Below, piece after piece: positions 1,294 through 32,328 of a stretch of DNA of 33,953 bases (within the stretch, counting starts at the first letter, position 1; every line of letters starts with the position of its first letter). The stretch is from the IMG/VR virus record IMGVR_UViG_2534682338_000010, positions 1-33,953 of that record; one strand, written 5' to 3'. Made by a program: the position numbers and the translations under genes. This stretch comes from a virus. Taxonomy: Duplodnaviria; Heunggongvirae; Uroviricota; Caudoviricetes. The notes under the pieces were generated by a model. The model was not told the DNA's origin. It worked only from the letters and a program-made list of their open reading frames with translations, and ran no database searches.

Positions 1294-2973
1294 ATGAAAA
1301 CTAAACTATATTCGTATATTCGCTTCTCGTCTATGCGTCAGAGTGATGGTTCGAGTTATGAACGACAAATCAGGATGGCGAGAGAGATTGCGGCAAAGTA
1401 TGACCTTGAACTGGTAAATGATTATCAGGATCTGGGTGTATCTGCGTTTAAGGGTGCTAACTCTAAAACAGGGGCGCTATCTCGTTTCCTTGATGCAATT
1501 GGTAGATCCGTTCCTGTTGGTAGCTGGCTATTCATTGAAAACTTGGACCGCTTATCCCGTGCCGATATTGTCAGTGCGCAGGAGTTATTCCTTTCAATCA
1601 TCCGTAGGGGAATAACCATTGTTACTGGCATGGATAACAAGATCTACTCGCTGGATACTGTTACCGCTAATCCGATGGACCTGATGTTCTCCATCCTTTT
1701 ATTCATCCGTGGTAATGAGGAAAGTCAGACTAAGCGCAATCGTACTAATTCAAGCGCACTGATTAAGATTAAAGCCCATCAAGAAAATCCCCAGAATCCG
1801 GCAGTGGCAATCGAGGAAGTTGGAAAGAATATGTGGTGGACGGATACCACTTCCGGTTATGTGCTGCCTCATCCGGTGTACTTCCCTGTTGTTCAGGATA
1901 TTGTGGAATTGCGGAAGAATGGACGTTCAACCGCCGAGATACTGGATCACCTTAACGAGACTTATACACCGCCACCAGCGGTTAGCAACAAGAAGCATTC
2001 AAAATGGTCACGGGCAATGGTTGAAAGGTTGTTTCATACCCGCGCTTTGATTGGTATCAAGGAGGTCTCTGTAGATGGCGTTAACTATGAGTTAAAGGAT
2101 TATTACCCTCGTGTTATTGATGACCCTACGTTCTATCACCTTAAGAAAAATATTGGTGCTAGAGCATGGAACTTTGGAGACAAGGAAGAAGTTAAACCGA
2201 TCCCCCTGCTTAGTGGTATTGGCCTATTGAAATGTGATCATTGCGGTTGCGCTATGGTTAAAGTGAAGGGAACGAACAAACGTTCTGACCAGTATCGTTA
2301 TACATGTGATGCGACCCGTTCACGTAGACTTGATTGCGAGCATCCAAACTGGAGTTTTCGAGGGGATCAATTAGAGAAAGCTGTATTGCAATTGCTGGCT
2401 GATAAAATCTGGATTGCTGAGGATAAGGCTAATCCGGTTCCGGCGTTGAAAGTACAGGTTGATGAAATATCACGCAAGATTGATAACCTGATTGCCCTTT
2501 CTGCTATGACAGGAGCAACGAAGGAGCTAGCCGATCAGATTACTACCCTCAATAGCGAGCGTGAAACACTCTACAATCAGATCAAGATGGCAGAAGAGGA
2601 AATGTATTCTGTGGACTCTCAAGGCTGGGAGAAGCTCGCAGAATTTGATTTAGAAGATGTTTATAACGAGGAACGACTAAAGGTCCGGTTTAAGATTAAG
2701 CAAGCTCTAAAGCGGATCGGGTGTAGCAGGATTGACAGAAACAAAAACTTGTTTGTACTGGAATACATCGATGGAAAGACCCAGAGAGTTGTAATAGAAA
2801 ATTCAAGAGGAACGAGGAAAGGCCGGATATTCATTGATTTGAAAACTATCAATGATAGACAGATTCTGGAAAGTAACGGGCTTGTTTTGCATCCATGTTT
2901 AGACATGCTGACAGATAAAGACTGGAAACCAGAAGAGGAAATACCAGGTCCATTACAGGAATTTGGAATTTAA
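1294..2973 (+). CDS. large serine recombinase (resolvase/invertase catalytic domain, recombinase domain, zinc ribbon, coiled coil)
   Basis: N-terminal YSYIRFSSMRQ (catalytic-Ser motif of serine recombinases); ENLDRLSR (conserved DRLGR-type motif); Cys cluster CDHCGC...YRYTC...CEH; 560 aa. Track start is TTG at 1279; ATG at 1294 preferred. Confidence 0.85.
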   Translation: MKTKLYSYIRFSSMRQSDGSSYERQIRMAREIAAKYDLELVNDYQDLGVSAFKGANSKTGALSRFLDAIGRSVPVGSWLFIENLDRLSRADIVSAQELFLSIIRRGITIVTGMDNKIYSLDTVTANPMDLMFSILLFIRGNEESQTKRNRTNSSALIKIKAHQENPQNPAVAIEEVGKNMWWTDTTSGYVLPHPVYFPVVQDIVELRKNGRSTAEILDHLNETYTPPPAVSNKKHSKWSRAMVERLFHTRALIGIKEVSVDGVNYELKDYYPRVIDDPTFYHLKKNIGARAWNFGDKEEVKPIPLLSGIGLLKCDHCGCAMVKVKGTNKRSDQYRYTCDATRSRRLDCEHPNWSFRGDQLEKAVLQLLADKIWIAEDKANPVPALKVQVDEISRKIDNLIALSAMTGATKELADQITTLNSERETLYNQIKMAEEEMYSVDSQGWEKLAEFDLEDVYNEERLKVRFKIKQALKRIGCSRIDRNKNLFVLEYIDGKTQRVVIENSRGTRKGRIFIDLKTINDRQILESNGLVLHPCLDMLTDKDWKPEEEIPGPLQEFGI

Positions 2974-3010
2974 GCGGCCTAAATCGACGTATAACGAGCT
3001 AAAACAGTTA

Positions 3011-3036
3011 AGGGGTACATTCGTACCCCTTTTTTA
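3011..3036 (+). terminator. rho-independent terminator
   Basis: stem AGGGGTAC / GTACCCCT with loop ATTC, then TTTTTT. Confidence 0.65.
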
Positions 3037-3241
3037 ATTTAATTGCATTAGGCAGCGTAAGCAAGTTTCATAGTAGTTTCCTCTAAAATAATAAGTTCAC
3101 TACTATTTATCAGAGAAAATTGTCTTACTATTGCATTCTCTATCTGGATGTGGGTATAGGCGGGATTGAATACGGCAAAACTGAAACATTCCACTACTGC
3201 AATAAATCACTAAACAATATAAAGAATATTGCAAGTGTGGA

Positions 3242-4741
3242 GTGGAACTAATGCAAGATATTAAAATTCATTTTCAAGATTACAGTTTCGTTAAGGTTGA
3301 TTGCTCTCCTTCTATCGGAATGGAATTAAGAGATTATTTCTCGTTTGAGGTTGAAGGGGCTAGGTTTAGCCCCCGTTACAAGTATTCTGGCTGGGATGGA
3401 CGAATAAGACTGTTTACGCATGAAAACACCCTACCAATTGGACTATTAAAAACGTTGGGTGTCTTTGTTAAAAATATGGGGTATTCAGTCTGGATTGACC
3501 CTAGATTGCTTGAGAAGGAAGATGTAACCAAAGACGCGATTAATGAATGGATTGATTCCTTAGAAGTGTATTCCGGTTCCAATAAAATCAATCCTTACTG
3601 GTATCAAAGGGAGGCAGTCTTTCAGGGTATTCATAATCGCCGTAGAATGCTGGTTCTTCCTACCAGTGCGGGTAAGTCATTGATTGCTTGTATGCTGTCT
3701 CGTTGGTACTTAGAGAACTACACCGGAAAAGTTCTAATCATTGTCCCTACTACATCGCTGGTGGTTCAAATGAGGGATGATTTTGTCGATTATAGGCTAT
3801 TCCCTTATGAAGCAATTCATACAATGATGAGTGGTAGCGGGAAACATCCGGGAGACAGGTTAATCACGGTTAGTACCTGGCAATCAGCTTGCAAGATGCC
3901 TCCTGAATGGTTCCGACAATATGGAATGTTGATAGTTGATGAATCACATAAGGCTAGTGCCAAAAATATTACCAATATCATTAACGGAATGAATCATTGT
4001 CAATTTAAGATCGGCATGACTGGTTCCCCGAAAGAATCAAAGTGCCATTTAATGCAGTATGTCGGGCTTTTCGGTGATATTTCTAAGATCGTGAGTATTG
4101 ACCGCCTGATGGAAGAAGGGCAGGTGACAAAACTGAAAATTAACTGTCTTTTCCTTCGTTATACCGATGAGGAATGTAGCGCGGTTAAGGGGAGAGAATA
4201 TGCGGAAGAGATCAAGTATATTACGTCTAACCCACGACGAAATAAGTTTGCTTGTAATTTGGCGCTAAAACTCGCTAAGAAGGGCGAAAACGTATTCCTG
4301 ATGTTCCGCAATACTAAGCACGGAAAACTTATGTATGATGCGTTACAGAAGGTACACGACAAGGTTTATTATATTGACGGTGGAGTTAAGACAGAAGAAC
4401 GTGATGAATTTAAGAAATTAGCGGAAGGGGAAACAGGGATCATTTGCGTTGCATCCTATGGTGTGTTCTCTACTGGTGTTTCAATTAAGAACTTGCACCA
4501 TGTTATTTTCGGTCATCCAGTGAAGGAATCAACTATCGTTCGTCAGAGTATCGGTCGTGCATTGCGTAAACATGGTTCTAAGGATATTGCAACGGTCTGG
4601 GATCTTATAGATCATCTGTGTATATTCGGTCGTAACGGAAAAGTCAAGCATAAAAATTATGCGGTAAAACATGCACTTGAGAGAATACGCTATTATCTAA
4701 CCGACAAGTTCAGCTATGCAACTAAAACAATTGCTATATAA
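3242..4741 (+). CDS. SF2 DExH helicase, UvsW-like (branch-migration/recombination helicase family)
   Basis: Walker A LPTSAGKS, motif II LIVDESH, motif VI QSIGRALRKHG; 499 aa; overall resemblance to T4 UvsW as recalled from memory. Confidence 0.8.
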   Translation: MELMQDIKIHFQDYSFVKVDCSPSIGMELRDYFSFEVEGARFSPRYKYSGWDGRIRLFTHENTLPIGLLKTLGVFVKNMGYSVWIDPRLLEKEDVTKDAINEWIDSLEVYSGSNKINPYWYQREAVFQGIHNRRRMLVLPTSAGKSLIACMLSRWYLENYTGKVLIIVPTTSLVVQMRDDFVDYRLFPYEAIHTMMSGSGKHPGDRLITVSTWQSACKMPPEWFRQYGMLIVDESHKASAKNITNIINGMNHCQFKIGMTGSPKESKCHLMQYVGLFGDISKIVSIDRLMEEGQVTKLKINCLFLRYTDEECSAVKGREYAEEIKYITSNPRRNKFACNLALKLAKKGENVFLMFRNTKHGKLMYDALQKVHDKVYYIDGGVKTEERDEFKKLAEGETGIICVASYGVFSTGVSIKNLHHVIFGHPVKESTIVRQSIGRALRKHGSKDIATVWDLIDHLCIFGRNGKVKHKNYAVKHALERIRYYLTDKFSYATKTIAI

Positions 4742-4742
4742 C

Positions 4743-4770
4743 AAAAAAGCGCCCACTAGAGGCGCTTTAA
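4743..4770. terminator. bidirectional intrinsic terminator between convergent helicase and endolysin genes
   Basis: stem AGCGCC / GGCGCT flanked by an A-run on one side and a T-rich run on the other. Confidence 0.55.
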
Positions 4771-21114: not shown

Positions 21115-21537
21115 TTAAAAACGCGCTAGATAAGAAAATTTAAGGCTAAGTGTCCCAACGATACCACCATCACTAGAATCATCGTCATAATCGGTATTAG
21201 AAGCTACTGGAGTGATATCTGAAATTGAGAAGCCCAAATCTTTAAAACGTGGGTTATCCGGCTGAATCTGGATTATCTGGCAAATACCCTCATGAATTTT
21301 CGTTTCATGAATCTGAGAATATAACTGCATTTCGATAACGCATTCAGCTTGCATTGCATTACCGCCACGGACCCTAGTGTAAGTCTCATTCATTCCGGTG
21401 ATCCAACAAACCACGTCATCACTAAAGCCTTGCTGAGTTTGTTCTACGTTTAAAGCCAGACCTAAATCTTGTTCGATAATATCCTGCAAGGCGCGTTTGA
21501 TTTTCAGTCTAGGCATATTATTAACGGTAGCGAGCAT
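21115..21537 (-). CDS. head-tail joining / tail completion protein
   Basis: ATG at 21537 preceded by AGGGGG with 6-nt spacing; overlaps the upstream gene end by 17 nt. Confidence 0.45.
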   Translation of the reverse strand: MLATVNNMPRLKIKRALQDIIEQDLGLALNVEQTQQGFSDDVVCWITGMNETYTRVRGGNAMQAECVIEMQLYSQIHETKIHEGICQIIQIQPDNPRFKDLGFSISDITPVASNTDYDDDSSDGGIVGTLSLKFSYLARF

Positions 21538-21811
21538 GTGTACCCCCTGCCAGAGTGATAAAGCAATCAGTTGTATTGTCACCATTGCGCTTAACGTATT
21601 GAACTTTGAAACGCTGATTTTCTACAGTGACAATATCACCCTGCTTTAAGTCTCCCTCACGACAGAATAGAAATTCTGTTTCTGTCATTACCCCTTGTTC
21701 GTCGGTAGTAGTAATTTCATGATAAGCACGAATTGATTTACCACCTTCCACCGAAAATACAGGAGCACTTCGGAACATTCTTGATAATTGTGATTCTGAT
21801 AATTTGAACAT
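21521..21811 (-). CDS. head completion / head-tail adaptor protein
   Basis: 96 aa; AAGGGGG SD 5 nt upstream of the ATG; first gene after the capsid terminator. Confidence 0.45.
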   Translation of the reverse strand: MFKLSESQLSRMFRSAPVFSVEGGKSIRAYHEITTTDEQGVMTETEFLFCREGDLKQGDIVTVENQRFKVQYVKRNGDNTTDCFITLAGGTHARYR

Positions 21812-26143: not shown

Positions 26144-28048
26144 TTAGAACGATGTTACCCAGCTACGGCCTCTATTTGGGCGTCTGGCGATGTTTTTACG
26201 TTGTGGTCGTGTGATTGGCTTATTTTCTTCGATTTGCTCGTCAGATTGCGATTTAGGAGCTTCTACGGGTTCTTCTGGTTCACGGTTCAAACTATCTTTG
26301 ATGGCTTCGAGTTTTTCCCATGACATTTTATTGAGTACATGGCGAGAAGCAGCATAGGAATAAGCCAGGCAGTCGAGAGCCTCGTTTCGTTGCTGACCAA
26401 CTTTTACCCAACGTGTGGTATTACCCTGCCGTTTCAACTGTTCAGAAAGCAATTGCTCGCAATAGTCATCAGGAACGTCACCAATCTGGAAGACAGTGTG
26501 AGGATCGCCATCTCTCAAGTTCCGGTTAATCATTTCACGGATCATCGTTTTAAGGTTGTTTACGCCCAGAATTTTAAGGGTAAAACCACCCGTTCTTGTG
26601 TCTTTTACCGGAAGGATTGGTGCATCAACATTGCTTGCGCCTTTAATGGCGGTTAGATTTTGCCACCGACTACAGAATCGGTAGATCACTTGCGTAGCTC
26701 GTCCGTTCGATGAGTCCACGAAAGCAGATAGCATCGGGATTCGTTCACCGGATCGGGTATAGAATTTCGCTTTCAGGAAGTTATAAAGCTGGTCATATGC
26801 TGGTGATTCGTGGCGTTCGCAGTTCACATCATAGAATGATCGGTGATCAACTACGCATAGACCTTTACGAGAAATACCCAGCAAGGTAGATTCCAGACGG
26901 TCTTTTTGCTGGTCAACTCCACCTACCAGAGCCAGTACATCATCAGGAATATTGTCTAGGCTAATATCAGTTTTCAGCGTTTCCAGTTCGTCGGCTGTGC
27001 GGTCTTCGTTAAGATCATCGAAGGTTTCACCGAGGACTGTATTGTAGAACGTTGCCAGGGACATATTCGCGTAGCTATCAGCAAAGTCCACCACACACGC
27101 ACGGATAGAACTAAACGGAGACATAAGGCGGTTAGCATGAAAACCGATTACTTCCGCATTTGGTTCGGTGGCGACCCATTCTCCCTTAGCAACAGCACGT
27201 AGGCGATCCCCTTCGGTCCAGTCGGTTTCACATTCAGGACAACGATAAACGGCTGTATCTGGGTTGGGTAATGATTTACCGTTAATCGTATGCCAATCGA
27301 AATGTACGTTACTCCATTCCATTACGTGCTTGTGTCCGCAATGCTGGCAAACGACATGATATTTTCTCTTATCCGAGAGTTCCCATTGTTGGTTAATCGC
27401 CCCATCACGAGCGGTTGGAGTGGAAGCAATTACGATCCTTGCATCTTCCCCGAAAGTGGTTGCGCGTTGTTCCGCTAGCTGGATCGGGTTCCCTTCGTCT
27501 GACTCATCAGCCGCATCAACTTCATCAAGAATAATCAAAGGGAGTGTTTTACCGCGAAGATGTGACGGACTATTCAACGACATGAAATACATAAACGATC
27601 CGTTACGAAGCTGAATAATCGATGAGTTGTTAACGGCATTGCGATCTGATTTGTCGGTGATCATCGCCTTTAATTCTGGCGTTGCCTCTAATACTGGCTT
27701 CACCTTACCAGCGATCCAAGAATTTAGTTCCCTAACGTTACTTTGCAACACCCCGATATTAGTAGGGTTACTCGCGATCCGATGGAAGATAATTCCGTTA
27801 AGAATCATGGTCTTACCCAACTGTGCCGAACATTTAAACACAATTTTTCTACGGTCTTCGGTGATCGCGTCCATCATTCCACGTTGGAAGGGATGCAATT
27901 TAATTAGAGATCCGGCTTTAACACCATCGGTAGCAACTACGTTAGCCTCTACCCACTCGCTAGGTTTCATTGCTTTAGGTGGGCGAATTGCAGCAGAGAT
28001 ATTTCTGAGAATCTTTTTTAATTTTGCCTTATTAGAAATCAGTTTCAT
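26144..28048 (-). CDS. terminase large subunit, lambda GpA-type
   Basis: 634 aa; Walker A KCSAQLGKT; acidic ILDEVDAADESDEG (Walker B-like); Cys/His cluster CQHCGHKH...CPECE as in GpA-family terminases. Confidence 0.85.
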   Translation of the reverse strand: MKLISNKAKLKKILRNISAAIRPPKAMKPSEWVEANVVATDGVKAGSLIKLHPFQRGMMDAITEDRRKIVFKCSAQLGKTMILNGIIFHRIASNPTNIGVLQSNVRELNSWIAGKVKPVLEATPELKAMITDKSDRNAVNNSSIIQLRNGSFMYFMSLNSPSHLRGKTLPLIILDEVDAADESDEGNPIQLAEQRATTFGEDARIVIASTPTARDGAINQQWELSDKRKYHVVCQHCGHKHVMEWSNVHFDWHTINGKSLPNPDTAVYRCPECETDWTEGDRLRAVAKGEWVATEPNAEVIGFHANRLMSPFSSIRACVVDFADSYANMSLATFYNTVLGETFDDLNEDRTADELETLKTDISLDNIPDDVLALVGGVDQQKDRLESTLLGISRKGLCVVDHRSFYDVNCERHESPAYDQLYNFLKAKFYTRSGERIPMLSAFVDSSNGRATQVIYRFCSRWQNLTAIKGASNVDAPILPVKDTRTGGFTLKILGVNNLKTMIREMINRNLRDGDPHTVFQIGDVPDDYCEQLLSEQLKRQGNTTRWVKVGQQRNEALDCLAYSYAASRHVLNKMSWEKLEAIKDSLNREPEEPVEAPKSQSDEQIEENKPITRPQRKNIARRPNRGRSWVTSF

Positions 28049-28135: not shown

Positions 28136-28741
28136 ATGCTAATTAATCAGCAACAAAGAGATGAATTAAAATTAGCCTTTTCTTGTTGTACCGATCATGA
28201 ATATCGTTTGCCAGTAAAACATAAGCACTTAAAGACTGATTACACAACATCCGGGTTTAGCCGTGAGGAAGCGAAAGAGATTTTAATAGAATTTTACCGT
28301 GATAATGGTTATACAGACGTTCACAACTTCTTTAAGAAACATAGAACATCACATACAGAGTTTCGGAGAGTCCGAGATTGGTTTGATTTTGATATCAAGC
28401 GTTATTATCGCATTGATGACGGTCCTATCTATCGGTTGCAGTGGAAGCCGATCCGAGAAGTGTTGAAACAGACAAGGGATAGTATGGCTGTCACAATGCC
28501 ACGTAACATAGCTTTTAAGAAAGGATATGGTGATACAAGGGAACTATTCGTTGAACTCGCTAACGTGAAGTACAGCCACTATTACAACGATCCTAAGTCC
28601 TTCTTTGAAGTGCTTCGCAAGGTTGATATTAGTCGGGGTACATATTATTCACGGTTGAAGAAGTACGGGATTAAGGCAGAGTTCTTTATGTCGGTTGACG
28701 ATGGAGAACTTTTTCCGATAAAATGTAAGTCCTCTAAATAA
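28136..28741 (+). CDS. hypothetical protein with C-terminal small DNA-binding (HTH-like) domain
   Basis: 201 aa; C-terminal segment ISRGTYYSRLKKYGIKAEF resembles the two small paralogs at 28777 and 32146. Confidence 0.6.
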   Translation: MLINQQQRDELKLAFSCCTDHEYRLPVKHKHLKTDYTTSGFSREEAKEILIEFYRDNGYTDVHNFFKKHRTSHTEFRRVRDWFDFDIKRYYRIDDGPIYRLQWKPIREVLKQTRDSMAVTMPRNIAFKKGYGDTRELFVELANVKYSHYYNDPKSFFEVLRKVDISRGTYYSRLKKYGIKAEFFMSVDDGELFPIKCKSSK

Positions 28742-28776
28742 AGGTGAACATTCACTTTAATTTGGAGAAAATGACT

Positions 28777-29004
28777 ATGACTACTAAAGCTACTCGCGGT
28801 CGTCCTGCCCGTTTTAACGCTGAACAGATGGCTGATATTGCCTACGCTTATTATACAGCGGATCGTGGTAAGGAAGCGAAAGAACAGATTCTTAGTGAAC
28901 ATGGGATTTCAATTGCCCAATTCTATAAGAATATGAAGAAGTTAGACATTAAATTCTATGTTCAGATCGGTGATGGTCAGATCGTAGAAGCAACAGGTTT
29001 TTGA
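28777..29004 (+). CDS. small DNA-binding protein (GRP/AT-hook-like N-terminus plus HTH-like core)
   Basis: MTTKATRGRPARFNAEQMADIAYAYY...; GGAG 9 nt upstream of this ATG; track ORF begins at an upstream GTG (28744). Confidence 0.55.
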   Translation: MTTKATRGRPARFNAEQMADIAYAYYTADRGKEAKEQILSEHGISIAQFYKNMKKLDIKFYVQIGDGQIVEATGF

Positions 29005-29151: not shown

Positions 29152-29967
29152 TTACAGTCCGAAGACTTCCAGTGATCCAACATTCTGACGGAGACGTTCA
29201 GCCGCTTTATTTTGAATCAGAATAGTGTTATTTGGCTGCGGTAGTTTAAGAGTTGCTTTCTGTTCTTCTTCCAAAACGCCCAATTCAACCAGCACCGGAA
29301 GCACATCAACAGTAAACTCAAGTTGGTAGTGAGCATTCATGCGGCAGAAAGACAGAGAAGAGTCATTAGCAACATACCCACACGGCTTGTTATTTTCATC
29401 ATAGACGCGCTCAATGTATCCAGCAGTACGCAAGGCCGTCAGTGCTTCTTTAACCTTCGTAGCGCCCTTTTTAGCGCCTAACAGACGCGTCATTGAATGG
29501 CTATCTACAGACTTACGAACATGAAGTTCAATCAGCTTTTTGTTTTCGCGAGTTTTCTTTAATGCCAGTTCGATCCAGTCTGTTTCTTCAAAGTCTGCAT
29601 ACGGGTTAACAGCTAAACGTTCCTGACGCAGTTTTTCATTTTCTTCTTTCAGTCGTTTCCATTCCTGAATAACAACCATTCGACGCTTAACATCGTAACC
29701 AGTAACAAGAGTCAGCGTAAGTTCTTCGTCAAGGTGATATTCGGTTTGTTCACGTCCATATTGGTCAAAAAAGATGCGTCCAAATTTGGACTCATCTAAT
29801 TCAAGAGAAGTAAGCATAGTTTTAATATCACGTTTAACATGCTTATGTTCTTTTCCGGTAAATTCAGCGATCTGACGGGAAGACATGGTCAGCGGTTTGG
29901 TGTTATCAACAACCAGAGACACGGAAGCAGTTTTAACAGCAGTATTCATAGTAGTAACAGTATTCAT
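29152..29967 (-). CDS. Rha-family phage regulatory protein
   Basis: N-terminal LTMSSRQIAEFTGKEHKHVKRDIKTM matches the conserved Rha motif; likely start at the first ATG of an 18-bp tandem duplication. Confidence 0.7.
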   Translation of the reverse strand: MNTVTTMNTAVKTASVSLVVDNTKPLTMSSRQIAEFTGKEHKHVKRDIKTMLTSLELDESKFGRIFFDQYGREQTEYHLDEELTLTLVTGYDVKRRMVVIQEWKRLKEENEKLRQERLAVNPYADFEETDWIELALKKTRENKKLIELHVRKSVDSHSMTRLLGAKKGATKVKEALTALRTAGYIERVYDENNKPCGYVANDSSLSFCRMNAHYQLEFTVDVLPVLVELGVLEEEQKATLKLPQPNNTILIQNKAAERLRQNVGSLEVFGL

Positions 29968-30063: not shown

Positions 30064-30396
30064 TCACCAATCGATTTCTACTTGGTCTTCTTCATAATAA
30101 GGAATCGCATATTCATAACGCCAGTTTTCGATGATTTCACGTTCTTCATTAGTAAGAAGGTGATTGTTAACTGGAGTCGCATTGTGATTACCAGCTTCGA
30201 ATTGCTCGCGAACTTCCAGCATTGCATGAATACCAGTTAAGGACATCAGATCAAACGGAACATGCATACTACGGGAGATAGTTTCACGGGATACGCCCCA
30301 ATCATTTTCTACATGGCTAGGGGTTACAGAAACGGTTTTGCCGGAGATTTTAACAGTCCAGTCATACAGGGATTTAGTGATGGTAAATTCTTTCAT
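30064..30396 (-). CDS. hypothetical protein
   Basis: 110 aa; AGAGGA SD; driven by a near-consensus promoter just upstream. Confidence 0.6.
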   Translation of the reverse strand: MKEFTITKSLYDWTVKISGKTVSVTPSHVENDWGVSRETISRSMHVPFDLMSLTGIHAMLEVREQFEAGNHNATPVNNHLLTNEEREIIENWRYEYAIPYYEEDQVEIDW

Positions 30397-30452
30397 GTTA
30401 CATCCTCTTTACAAATCTAGGTCAAATAGGTTCAAAGTTGTCAAGTGCGATA

Positions 30453-30481
30453 ATCATAAAAAAGTTTGAAGATATTGTCAA
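30453..30481 (-). promoter_or_regulatory. near-consensus sigma70 promoter (minus strand)
   Basis: minus-strand TTGACA (30481-30476), 17-nt spacer, TATGAT (30458-30453); a second TTGACA lies at 30444-30439. Confidence 0.55.
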
Positions 30482-30517
30482 ATACCCCTTGACAGGACGC
30501 CAAAGGGTTGACCTAAC

Positions 30518-30985
30518 TTACAGCATATCTAAGCCTTCATCGTAACCGTAGAAGCCATTCTGAGAAGAGAAACAGATTGGAGCGTAGTCGTCGTCATCTT
30601 CGTCTTGTTCATCGCGTTCTGGTGCTTTCTGAGCGGTTTCTTTGCCGTAGTTAAACATTGCTTCATCCAGTTCATAGACAGTAACGAAGCTACCTAAATC
30701 AATGTCATAATCACGGACTTCGAAAGGCAGGTCATCACGAACAATGATTGCTGGAATGTTCTGGTATTTCAGGCGGTCTTCATCGGTGAAGCAGTTAACA
30801 ACAATGGTCGGCTTCTTATTACGGCAAAACGCATAACATGCACTAGAGAAATGGGATTCATCGGAATTGAAAAGGATGTTATAACCACGTTCACGGAACA
30901 TCTTCATTAACTTGTCATTGTGGAAGCTATCAGCATCAAAACCTAACAGGATGAAAGGAGTAGTGGTAGTCATTTTATGGTTCAT
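30518..30985 (-). CDS. hypothetical early protein with strongly acidic C-terminal region
   Basis: 155 aa; AGAGGA SD 8 nt upstream; C-terminal ERDEQDEDDDDY. Confidence 0.6.
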   Translation of the reverse strand: MNHKMTTTTPFILLGFDADSFHNDKLMKMFRERGYNILFNSDESHFSSACYAFCRNKKPTIVVNCFTDEDRLKYQNIPAIIVRDDLPFEVRDYDIDLGSFVTVYELDEAMFNYGKETAQKAPERDEQDEDDDDYAPICFSSQNGFYGYDEGLDML

Positions 30986-31388
30986 AGTGGAAATCCTCTA
31001 AAAGAAAGTGAATCAAAGTAATTCTGATATTATTTATAAGAGAAAATTCTTGATGATTTTGGAAGGGATTGTTACTCACTTCGTTCGTTTACTAGAATCA
31101 GTTATCATCTGGTATTAAATCCCTTTCTAAGAAAATCCTTTCAAAAGTGATTCTCGATGCCACGCAGTGGCGTCGCAGACGTTTGGGAGTGAGCGAAGCG
31201 AGCGAGCAAACTAGTTAATTCCTTCTAAGATCATCTAGTTTAAATTAGTGTTACTAGAAGTAATTGGTTAGCGCTTCGCGCAGTCGGGCTACGCCCTCCT
31301 AATATCTTTTTGGTTATTTGTTGTTTTTGGTTTTACACATGAGCGTAGCGAATGTGTTATATAATATCTATGCACGCCCGATTCCCCG

Positions 31389-31630
31389 TTTTGCCCCTCA
31401 CTAAGTTAATGTTTTATAAAGAGTTTTTCTCACAAATCCTTTTCGGGGGCAAATTTCAGGGGCAAAAATTAGATTTTCAGGGGCAATTATTGGCATTTCA
31501 GGGGCAAAAATGAGGGGCAAAATCACTGTTTCCCAGAATTTCAGGGGCAAAAATAGTAGGTTTCAGGGGCAAAAATGGGATGTGGAATCTAGGGGATTTT
31601 GGTTCAGGGGCAAAATTCGGGGGCAATTTT
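31389..31630 (+). repeat. iteron-like array: 9 direct copies and 1 inverted copy of GGGGCAA(A/T)
   Basis: direct copies starting at 31445, 31459, 31480, 31501, 31514, 31544, 31566, 31607, 31619; inverted copy at 31389-31397; several have the extended form TTTCAGGGGCAAAAAT. Confidence 0.8.
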
Positions 31631-31667
31631 CATAGTGTAGGGCTAGTGTAGGTTTGAAAATCCTTTG

Positions 31668-31696
31668 TTGACACTGTGTAGGATCGGTGGTATACT
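31668..31696 (+). promoter_or_regulatory. near-consensus sigma70 promoter P1
   Basis: TTGACA (31668-31673), 17-nt spacer, TATACT (31691-31696). Confidence 0.55.
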
Positions 31697-31724
31697 TGAA
31701 AATTCGAGATAAATATTTTATAAT
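31696..31724 (+). promoter_or_regulatory. near-consensus sigma70 promoter P2 (tandem with P1)
   Basis: TTGAAA (31696-31701), 17-nt spacer, TATAAT (31719-31724). Confidence 0.55.
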
Positions 31725-32145
31725 ATTTGTATTGAAAGTGAAAATTTACCGATTTTCCTTCCTATTGTTATCACCGTGTTAAATTGTTATATGTCTGTGA
31801 AGATTTGGATCTGAGAGAAAATCTTGTAACAAATCTTTACAATTCATAGCTCAATTAATGCTCACCGCTTTAGCAAAAAGTGCTATGCCTTTTTCTAAAT
31901 TGATTGAATATACATCAATTTGGTTAAATCGTGTTCTTCGCTTTAGCAATTCGTGCTGTGGTTTAACACATTTAACACGTCTGATAACATCTGAATAACA
32001 TTTTAACATATCTCTGTTATAAATACATATATAAGAGATAAATGTGAGGGGTTGAAAAATAAAATACAATCCCCATATAAATAATAGTGAGCGGTTAACG
32101 CTCTTTTTTAAGAAATCATTAATCCACATTGTAGGAGGATTCGAG

Positions 32146-32328
32146 ATGGCACGACCTGTTAAGTTCACTCGCGAAATCATCTTAGAAATGGCTAAACGCT
32201 ACTTTGAGTTAACGCCGGGTGTGAGAATTGAAGAGTGGTTTAAAAATGAGGGCATCGATAAATCAACCTTTCATAAACTGCTAAAACGATATGACATTAA
32301 AGTGAAGATTGAAGCTACCGTTTGGTAA
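32146..32328 (+). CDS. small DNA-binding protein (paralog of the 28777 gene)
   Basis: 60 aa MARPVKFTREIILEMAKRYFELTPGV...; AGGAGGA SD 6 nt upstream. Confidence 0.65.
   Translation: MARPVKFTREIILEMAKRYFELTPGVRIEEWFKNEGIDKSTFHKLLKRYDIKVKIEATVW

Follow-up and report, generated by a model that had tools for sequence, protein, structure and literature searches.

Introduction

The tethering adaptor SspB of Escherichia coli is built from a substrate-binding domain, a disordered linker, and a C-terminal peptide that binds ClpX. In SSB-type tails, the hydrophobic or aromatic residues that follow an acidic stretch serve as a protein-docking tip; E. coli SSB ends in ...DFDDDIPF and T7 gp2.5 in ...DGDF, and the partners of these tails read the terminal carboxylate. 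Binding to the beta clamp follows the consensus QL[SD]LF or QLxLxL. Packaging tags have precedents in the cargo-loading peptides of encapsulins and in the targeting sequence of the T4 internal proteins.

The 155-residue open reading frame discussed in this report is a real gene of an unstudied E. coli prophage. Like SspB, its product has a folded domain of ~110 residues, a flexible linker of ~20 to 40 residues, and a short conserved C-terminal peptide that may serve for docking. There is no sequence or fold relationship between the two proteins, however, and the ..GLDML end of the phage protein is unlike the XB motif of SspB; the comparison is an analogy of working principle and not one of membership.

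The prophage and its gene layout

The window, by which we mean the whole stretch of 33,953 nucleotides that was analyzed, represents a prophage of ~37 kb that carries a serine recombinase and is inserted in ycdX. The same region is found in E. coli chromosomes at 92 to 96% identity, again in ycdX, and the gene for the 155-residue protein is present in 58 of 5,426 complete E. coli genomes. Two prophages of the same type, L023 and L026, sit in hicB instead of ycdX and have a serine recombinase that is 91% identical to that of the window. A literature search on the prophage, its insertion sites, and the protein accessions found nothing relevant.

At the left end, the gene for the large serine recombinase is followed by a cargo slot and then, on the minus strand, by genes for lysis, tail, an HK97-type protease-capsid protein, portal, and a gpA-type large terminase. 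Beyond the large terminase lies a ~6-kb block of small unannotated genes. The closest relative of the terminase in INPHARED is 43% identical, and among the 50,697 phage records of that collection there was no match for either the DNA of the region or the 155-residue protein. The phage family is one of uncharacterized enterobacterial temperate phages with a serine recombinase, a lambda-like Nu1/gpA terminase, and an HK97-type capsid.

The Nu1-like small terminase is encoded just past the right end of the window (L001 26259-26825, minus strand; phrog_57, E = 1.8e-16). It is split from the gpA-type large terminase gene (26144-28048) by the ~6-kb regulatory block, an unusual separation of packaging genes. 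The cargo slot (2973-4770), between the recombinase and the lysis genes, holds the gene of a 499-residue SF2 helicase with weak matches to defense helicases (PbeA, type IV restriction). The corresponding slot of prophage PSJ-22 has an SF2 helicase, a GIY-YIG nuclease, and a 185-residue gene product, and that of L022, L023, and L026 is empty or holds other genes. The slot may carry defense cargo. A 91-nt tRNA-Glu reported by ARAGORN (21260-21350, plus strand) lies inside, and antisense to, the structural reading frame 21115..21585 and is probably a false positive.

On the right-hand side of the window, the gene at 29152..30033 matches Phage_pRha (3.6e-12). The plus strand encodes paralogous small HTH-like proteins, namely, one of 60 residues (32146-32328), one of 86 residues (28744-29004), and the C-terminal part of one of 201 residues (28136-28741). 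Their mutual identity is 33 to 41%, and they are candidate repressor/Cro-type regulators.

An orphan gene in a conserved position

The segment from 30397 to 30985 consists of one minus-strand reading frame, for the 155-residue protein, and a 121-nt spacer to the next minus-strand reading frame (30064..30396), which encodes 110 residues. The coding sequence occupies 30518..30985, with its TAA stop at 30518-30520. It begins with ATG, and the ribosome binding site AGAGGA (30994..30999, minus strand) is readable in the sequence 8 nt upstream of the start codon and recurs as GAGGA in all loci. With this start and ribosome binding site, the gene that an earlier note on this DNA had placed here is real.

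A word-indexed search of 5.8 billion proteins returned 78 clusters of homologues; E. coli and Shigella account for every one of them, and each is named “hypothetical.” When 1.84 billion representative proteins were searched with a full profile, about nine true family members were recovered; the one hit outside the family was a repeat protein and was dismissed as spurious. The protein had no match in Pfam, PHROGs, NCBIfam, or PADLOC and no relative among the GTDB species representatives (185,579 species), and a profile search of the PDB gave nothing below E = 0.4. It is a member of a tiny new orphan family.

The distant members of this family, at 33 to 42% identity, are encoded in the same kind of prophage and at the same position, where the orphan gene is followed by a small gene and then by a Rha-family gene and adjoins a long gene-free stretch. 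All family members keep this position, down to relatives at 33 to 38% identity, and the orphan gene thus belongs, in a fixed place, to the core genes of a single narrow lineage of phages.

Domain organization and charge of the protein

AlphaFold2, run with a 20-sequence alignment, predicts a confident alpha/beta domain for residues 5 to 115 (block pLDDT of about 77 to 90; 30641..30973, minus strand), referred to here as the head. Residues 116 to 155 have pLDDT values of <50 and are predicted to be disordered, although the shallow alignment of 20 sequences could also account for the apparent disorder of this tail. The tail has two parts. Residues 116 to 133 (30587..30640, minus strand) form a linker with pLDDT of <50 that holds the ERDEQDEDDDD run and is always acidic among the homologues. 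Residues 134 to 155 (30521..30586, minus strand) are the C-terminal peptide YAPICFSSQNGFYGYDEGLDML, the best-conserved segment of the protein, which is predicted to be disordered and which we propose to be a docking motif. The C-terminal consensus of the family is DDDY-x-P-[IV]-x-F-S-S ... G-[FY]-Y-G-Y-[DN]-E-[GA]-[LF]-D-M-L-COOH, and in the window it reads DDDYAPICFSS..GFYGYDEGLDML. The evidence supports a protein of three parts: the folded head, which can be exchanged, the flexible acidic linker, and the terminal peptide, which is conserved.

The acidic run, ERDEQDEDDDDY, spans residues 123 to 134 of the 155-residue protein and has 9 D/E in 12 residues, a density that was reached in 193 of 100,000 shuffles of the protein. 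An acidic stretch is retained in every homologue, with variable length and sequence. The earlier note had taken this run for a poly-acidic tail that ends the protein. The run is indeed there and is unusually dense, but it is internal: it is followed by 21 non-acidic, aromatic or hydrophobic residues, APICFSSQNGFYGYDEGLDML, that extend to the C-terminus, and the true end of the protein is the conserved hydrophobic/aromatic peptide.

From this acidity the same note had drawn the suggestion of a DNA mimic or anti-restriction factor, that is, an acidic protein that imitates DNA and blocks restriction enzymes or other DNA-binding defenses of the host. The whole protein has a pI of 4.34 and a net charge of −16, its acidic run stands out statistically and, as a feature, is conserved, and its family is a small, fast-evolving phage orphan. 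It also resembles Ocr and ArdA in being small, acidic, phage-encoded, and located in an early-type region. The distribution of the charge is different, however. Residues 1 to 115 are only mildly acidic (net charge −5, pI 5.05), the disordered residues 116 to 155 hold 11 of the 16 net negative charges, and the 19 residues from 116 to 134 have a net charge of −8. The acidity thus belongs to a short disordered linker of ~18 residues, variable in length and sequence, and not to a charged folded surface with the shape of DNA as in Ocr and ArdA, and neither structure prediction nor sequence profiles turned up a protein that is described as mimicking DNA or countering restriction. The best-conserved segment, moreover, is a non-acidic aromatic end peptide for which a charge mimic would have no need. 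DNA mimicry is, on this evidence, very unlikely. The wider idea of an anti-host early protein holds up in part: the gene belongs to the part of a temperate phage that serves regulation and replication, its product is an orphan, and the head evolves much faster than the rest of the phage and has alleles that assort independently of all other phage genes compared. These features are compatible with an accessory protein whose target lies outside the phage. An anti-defense role in this broad sense is possible.

The hydrophobic end of the disordered tail, ...DML-COOH, also invites comparison with degradation signals, and several phage regulators are controlled by such signals at their C-termini. 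The tail would in that case be an instability signal, with a nonpolar C-terminus read by host proteases, and the protein would be a short-lived regulator. We find this hardly credible, since the 22 conserved residues go far beyond the needs of known C-terminal degrons and the terminal sequence is unlike the LAA-type motif.

The Foldseek scores of the head with P-loop nucleoside and nucleotide kinases (gluconate kinase, T4 dNMP kinase, and guanylate-kinase-like domains) have E-values that are all >0.05, there is no profile match to these kinases, and strand 1 of the predicted fold is followed by LLGFDADSFHNDK, which has neither GK[ST] nor the Walker A pattern GxxxxGK[ST] and in which only G15 is invariant. 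The scores appear to indicate shared topology and not membership. The flavodoxin-like fold with an acidic phosphorylation pocket that marks a CheY-like receiver was looked for and is not found in the protein either. With neither a Walker A motif nor a family match, the protein has no enzymatic signature.

Divergence of the head and conservation of the tail

Residues 131 to 155 are 64 to 88% identical in five of the six homologues that were compared and 44% identical in the most distant one; the identity of the head among the same six is 32 to 57%. When the tails of the window and the distant prophage L003 are compared, pS is 0.72, which is near saturation, and pN is 0.21, against a pN of 0.44 for the head. 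Low pN of the tail with synonymous sites near saturation means that the constraint is on the peptide and not on the DNA, and the end peptide is kept by purifying selection at the protein level. A DNA-level constraint on the tail, through operators or an RNA element, was rejected on the same ground of near-saturated synonymous sites between lineages.

The comparison of the window with PSJ-22 shows how the head has moved. Positions 30611-31088, which comprise the head-coding part and ~100 nt upstream, are 50 to 78% identical at the nucleotide level, whereas the flanks are 93 to 100% identical and the tail-coding part is 93 to 98% identical. For the head in this pair, dS is 1.2 and dN/dS is 0.28; the full range of head dN/dS, 0.12 to 0.36, indicates relaxed purifying selection plus recombination, with no demonstrable positive selection. 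The head is an old allele that has been moved by recombination, with breakpoints in the linker or tail and in the upstream spacer, and two classes of head allele circulate in the 58 E. coli genomes. Mosaicism is common in this phage group and strong even among prophages that are nearly identical otherwise: relative to the copies in the window, the large terminase gene (26144-28048) is 59% or 95 to 98% identical depending on the strain, Rha is 54 to 98% identical, and the 60-residue gene is 53 to 95% identical. Allele swapping is therefore no special mark of an arms race.

As a whole, the orphan protein is 38% identical to its L003 counterpart, against 60 to 83% for the core proteins of the phage, which places it with the fastest-evolving ones. 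The tail alone, at ~64%, is about at the phage average and not above the core proteins, so that a conserved phage partner of the tail, such as the recombinase, the capsid, or the Rha protein, is also possible. A search with the tail alone returned solely fragments of the protein's own family, with the motif absent from other protein contexts, and thus gives no independent support for a portable motif.

Some prophages carry decayed copies of the gene (L009, L022, and the proteins P0078 and P0085-P0089), with a premature stop after 34 codons or with in-frame deletions in which the head is lost and the tail reading frame is kept. In another case, an IS1-mediated deletion took the neighboring genes and left the orphan gene intact.

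The head was compared for co-variation with the other genes of seven prophages, i.e., the window, PSJ-22, and L022 to L026. In this small sample no other reading frame partitions like the two head classes, so none of the phage proteins examined qualifies as a partner that varies along with the head. An apparent link to the left-end genes for 90 and 128 residues, seen in four prophages, was gone after L024 and L026 were added. The 110-residue protein encoded downstream was rejected as an obligatory partner, as L005 lacks its gene and several prophages with the same tail carry unrelated small genes in its place.

A proposed tethering adaptor or decoy

Our preferred reading, which we hold tentatively and with low confidence, is that the protein is a tethering adaptor or a decoy whose tail docks on a conserved partner, most likely one of the host. 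The C-terminal peptide would dock in a groove of this invariant partner, most likely a conserved host protein, and the head would then bring a second, variable target to the docked partner or would block the partner. The host is favored as the source because none of the phage genes that were compared varies in step with the head. The docking function of the tail, the host origin of the partner, and the timing of expression considered below are all things that we infer.

Should the tail indeed dock on a conserved host machine, the family would offer a simple, experimentally tractable case in which a phage adaptor or decoy works through a short linear motif. It would also provide a first functional entry to a temperate lineage that occurs in ~1% of complete E. 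coli genomes and in which all genes of the regulatory and replication region are unannotated. If the gene is an ordinary dispensable accessory gene, its interest is local. The exchangeable head on a fixed tail is an instructive evolutionary pattern of the head-and-tail kind.

A variable cargo joined by a flexible linker to a conserved terminal peptide also recalls the design of cargo-loading systems, and the C-terminal peptide might be a packaging tag that brings the variable head into the HK97-type capsid, from which it would be injected along with the DNA. The protease-capsid fusion is well conserved among these prophages, and the orphan gene lies between terS and terL on the same strand. 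The TATAAATA box upstream of the orphan gene, described below, is shared with the operon for the 60- and 313-residue proteins, however, and not with terL or terS, and an acidic protein would be an unusual companion of packaged DNA. We consider packaging of the protein highly unlikely.

Promoters and putative operators

The earlier note described the orphan gene as strongly promoted and also recorded a near-consensus promoter ahead of the next small gene. The promoter is present: TTGACA-17-TATGAT lies on the minus strand at 30453..30481, matches 11 of 12 consensus positions of sigma-70 in a promoter scan, and stands between the orphan gene and the next gene (30064..30396). It sits 3′ of the stop codon of the orphan gene, though, and serves the 110-residue gene, so the strong promotion does not apply to the orphan gene. 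Directly upstream of the latter, the scan found no sigma-70-like site of at least 9 of 12 positions. The downstream promoter is conserved in the relatives L001, L003, and L005; distant relatives have at the same place the similar TTGACA-18-TATCAT and TTGACA-18-TAGAAT.

Around this promoter, between 30420 and 30513, five half-sites of the form TTGACA, TGTCAA, or GGTCAA can be read in a nested dyad arrangement; the half-sites are kept in relatives including L003 and L005. The −35 element of the promoter shares sequence with a palindrome, TGTCAA-N7-TTGACA, whose spacer is N6 in most relatives. Judged from this arrangement, the half-sites look like an operator set that controls the promoter of the 110-residue and Rha genes, and they are probably the operators of the main repressor of the phage.

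The orphan gene is co-directional with, and directly upstream of, this operator-controlled strong promoter of the 110-residue and Rha-family genes, a layout that recalls lambda, in which cI-rex is followed by OL/PL. The protein might accordingly be thought a regulator of the lysis-lysogeny decision, as an antirepressor-type protein or a partner protein of the downstream Rha operon that acts on a phage regulator. This seems improbable, because the protein is acidic and has no DNA-binding motif, it gave no match to the Phage_pRha, ANT, or KilAC profiles and shows no similarity to the Ant, KilAC, or Rha families, and neither Rha nor the 60-, 86-, and 201-residue HTH-like proteins nor the operators follow the head alleles, the operators being conserved in both head classes.

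For the orphan gene itself the likely promoter is of another kind. The TATAAATA box (31031..31038, minus strand) lies 44 to 48 nt before the ATG and is invariant in nine of nine loci, including the distant L003 and L005 with their diverged flanks. It is likely the −10 element of the gene's own promoter, which has no −35 element and may need an activator. The same box, again with no −35 element, precedes the divergent operon for the 60- and 313-residue proteins (32076-32083, plus strand) in every locus that was examined; it does not occur before terL or terS. As the box is common to the two transcription units, the orphan gene is probably co-regulated with that operon. Under the adaptor or decoy reading, the protein would be transcribed from its own −10-only promoter, and because the box is shared with a divergent operon that encodes a putative iteron-binding initiator, it would probably be made together with the early and replication genes.

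The putative iteron region and a possible role in replication

The gene-free stretch upstream of the orphan gene measures 1.16 kb (30986-32145). Between 31383 and 31641 it holds about ten copies of TTYCRGGGGCAA, spaced by 13, 21, or 22 bp, with inverted copies at the left edge. Other prophages have a different repeat in this place, i.e., AACCTACACTA, or still others in L003 and L005. The type of repeat tracks the neighboring protein, which has 313 or ~331 residues, and does not track the orphan gene, the 60-residue gene, or the small terminase. The pattern suggests that the repeat array and its 313- or ~331-residue neighbor are probably an iteron origin and its initiator. A homologue search with the 313-residue protein found “hypothetical” proteins only. 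The head of the orphan protein was considered as an iteron-specific binder and rejected, since each head class occurs with each iteron type, in all four combinations.

The location raises an alternative to the adaptor or decoy, namely, that the protein is a replication accessory factor that works with the neighboring iteron origin and initiator and whose tail recruits a part of the host replisome (DnaB, the beta clamp, or an SSB-interacting protein) in a role like that of lambda P or DciA. The gene adjoins the 1.16-kb iteron region, and its TATAAATA box recurs before the operon that encodes the protein co-varying with iteron type. In the core phage genome there is an initiator candidate and no recognizable helicase loader, primase, or polymerase, the SF2 helicase being optional cargo. 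Like DciA and lambda P, the orphan protein is small and lies beside a putative origin, and its folded N-terminal part and disordered conserved C-terminal part recall the arrangement of DciA. The tail has partial likenesses of its own. The terminal GLDML is loosely like the clamp motif QL[SD]LF, and DDDY-AP-I-x-F is loosely like the SSB tip DDDIPF; as in SSB, conserved hydrophobic or aromatic residues come after an acidic stretch that is disordered, and the DDDY-A-P-I-C-F segment appears similar.

Each of these likenesses has its limits. In the family C-terminus, [GA]-[LF]-[DEQ]-[MT]-L, four of five positions fit the clamp motif, and the Q is absent in every member. The SSB-like segment DDDYAPICF is internal (residues 131 to 139), with 16 more residues after it, twelve of them conserved, and so it offers no free terminal tip or terminal carboxylate of the SSB type; nor is the head an OB fold, or basic. 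The protein has no homology to lambda P, DciA, or any other loader, its head alleles are distributed without regard to the types of iteron and initiator, and the iteron region is itself a putative origin. We regard a replication accessory role as rather unlikely. A more specific version combines the two ideas: the tail would mimic a hub motif of the host replisome, of the clamp-binding or SSB-tip-like kind, and the protein would be an adaptor that recruits or blocks the replisome and replaces the missing helicase loader or accessory factor, while the choice of host factor or defense to be engaged would lie with the exchangeable head. This version, too, strikes us as unlikely, and less probable than an accessory role in replication as such.

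Two further features of the noncoding sequence were observed. The spacer at 31050-31300, and the matching spacers in L001, L003, and L007 to L026, contain short GC-rich hairpins one after another, and several of these have loops of the TTCG type. A repeated element, GGAGGGCGTAGCCCGACTG, occurs in this spacer and is nearly identical in the distant L003, and indels of ~200 bp distinguish the spacer alleles. An Rfam search of the region gave no match, and the spacer could be a structured leader RNA or a set of DNA sites. At the 60-residue gene, the TATAAATA box is followed by a conserved hairpin and T-run (32089-32109) that has the appearance of an attenuator.
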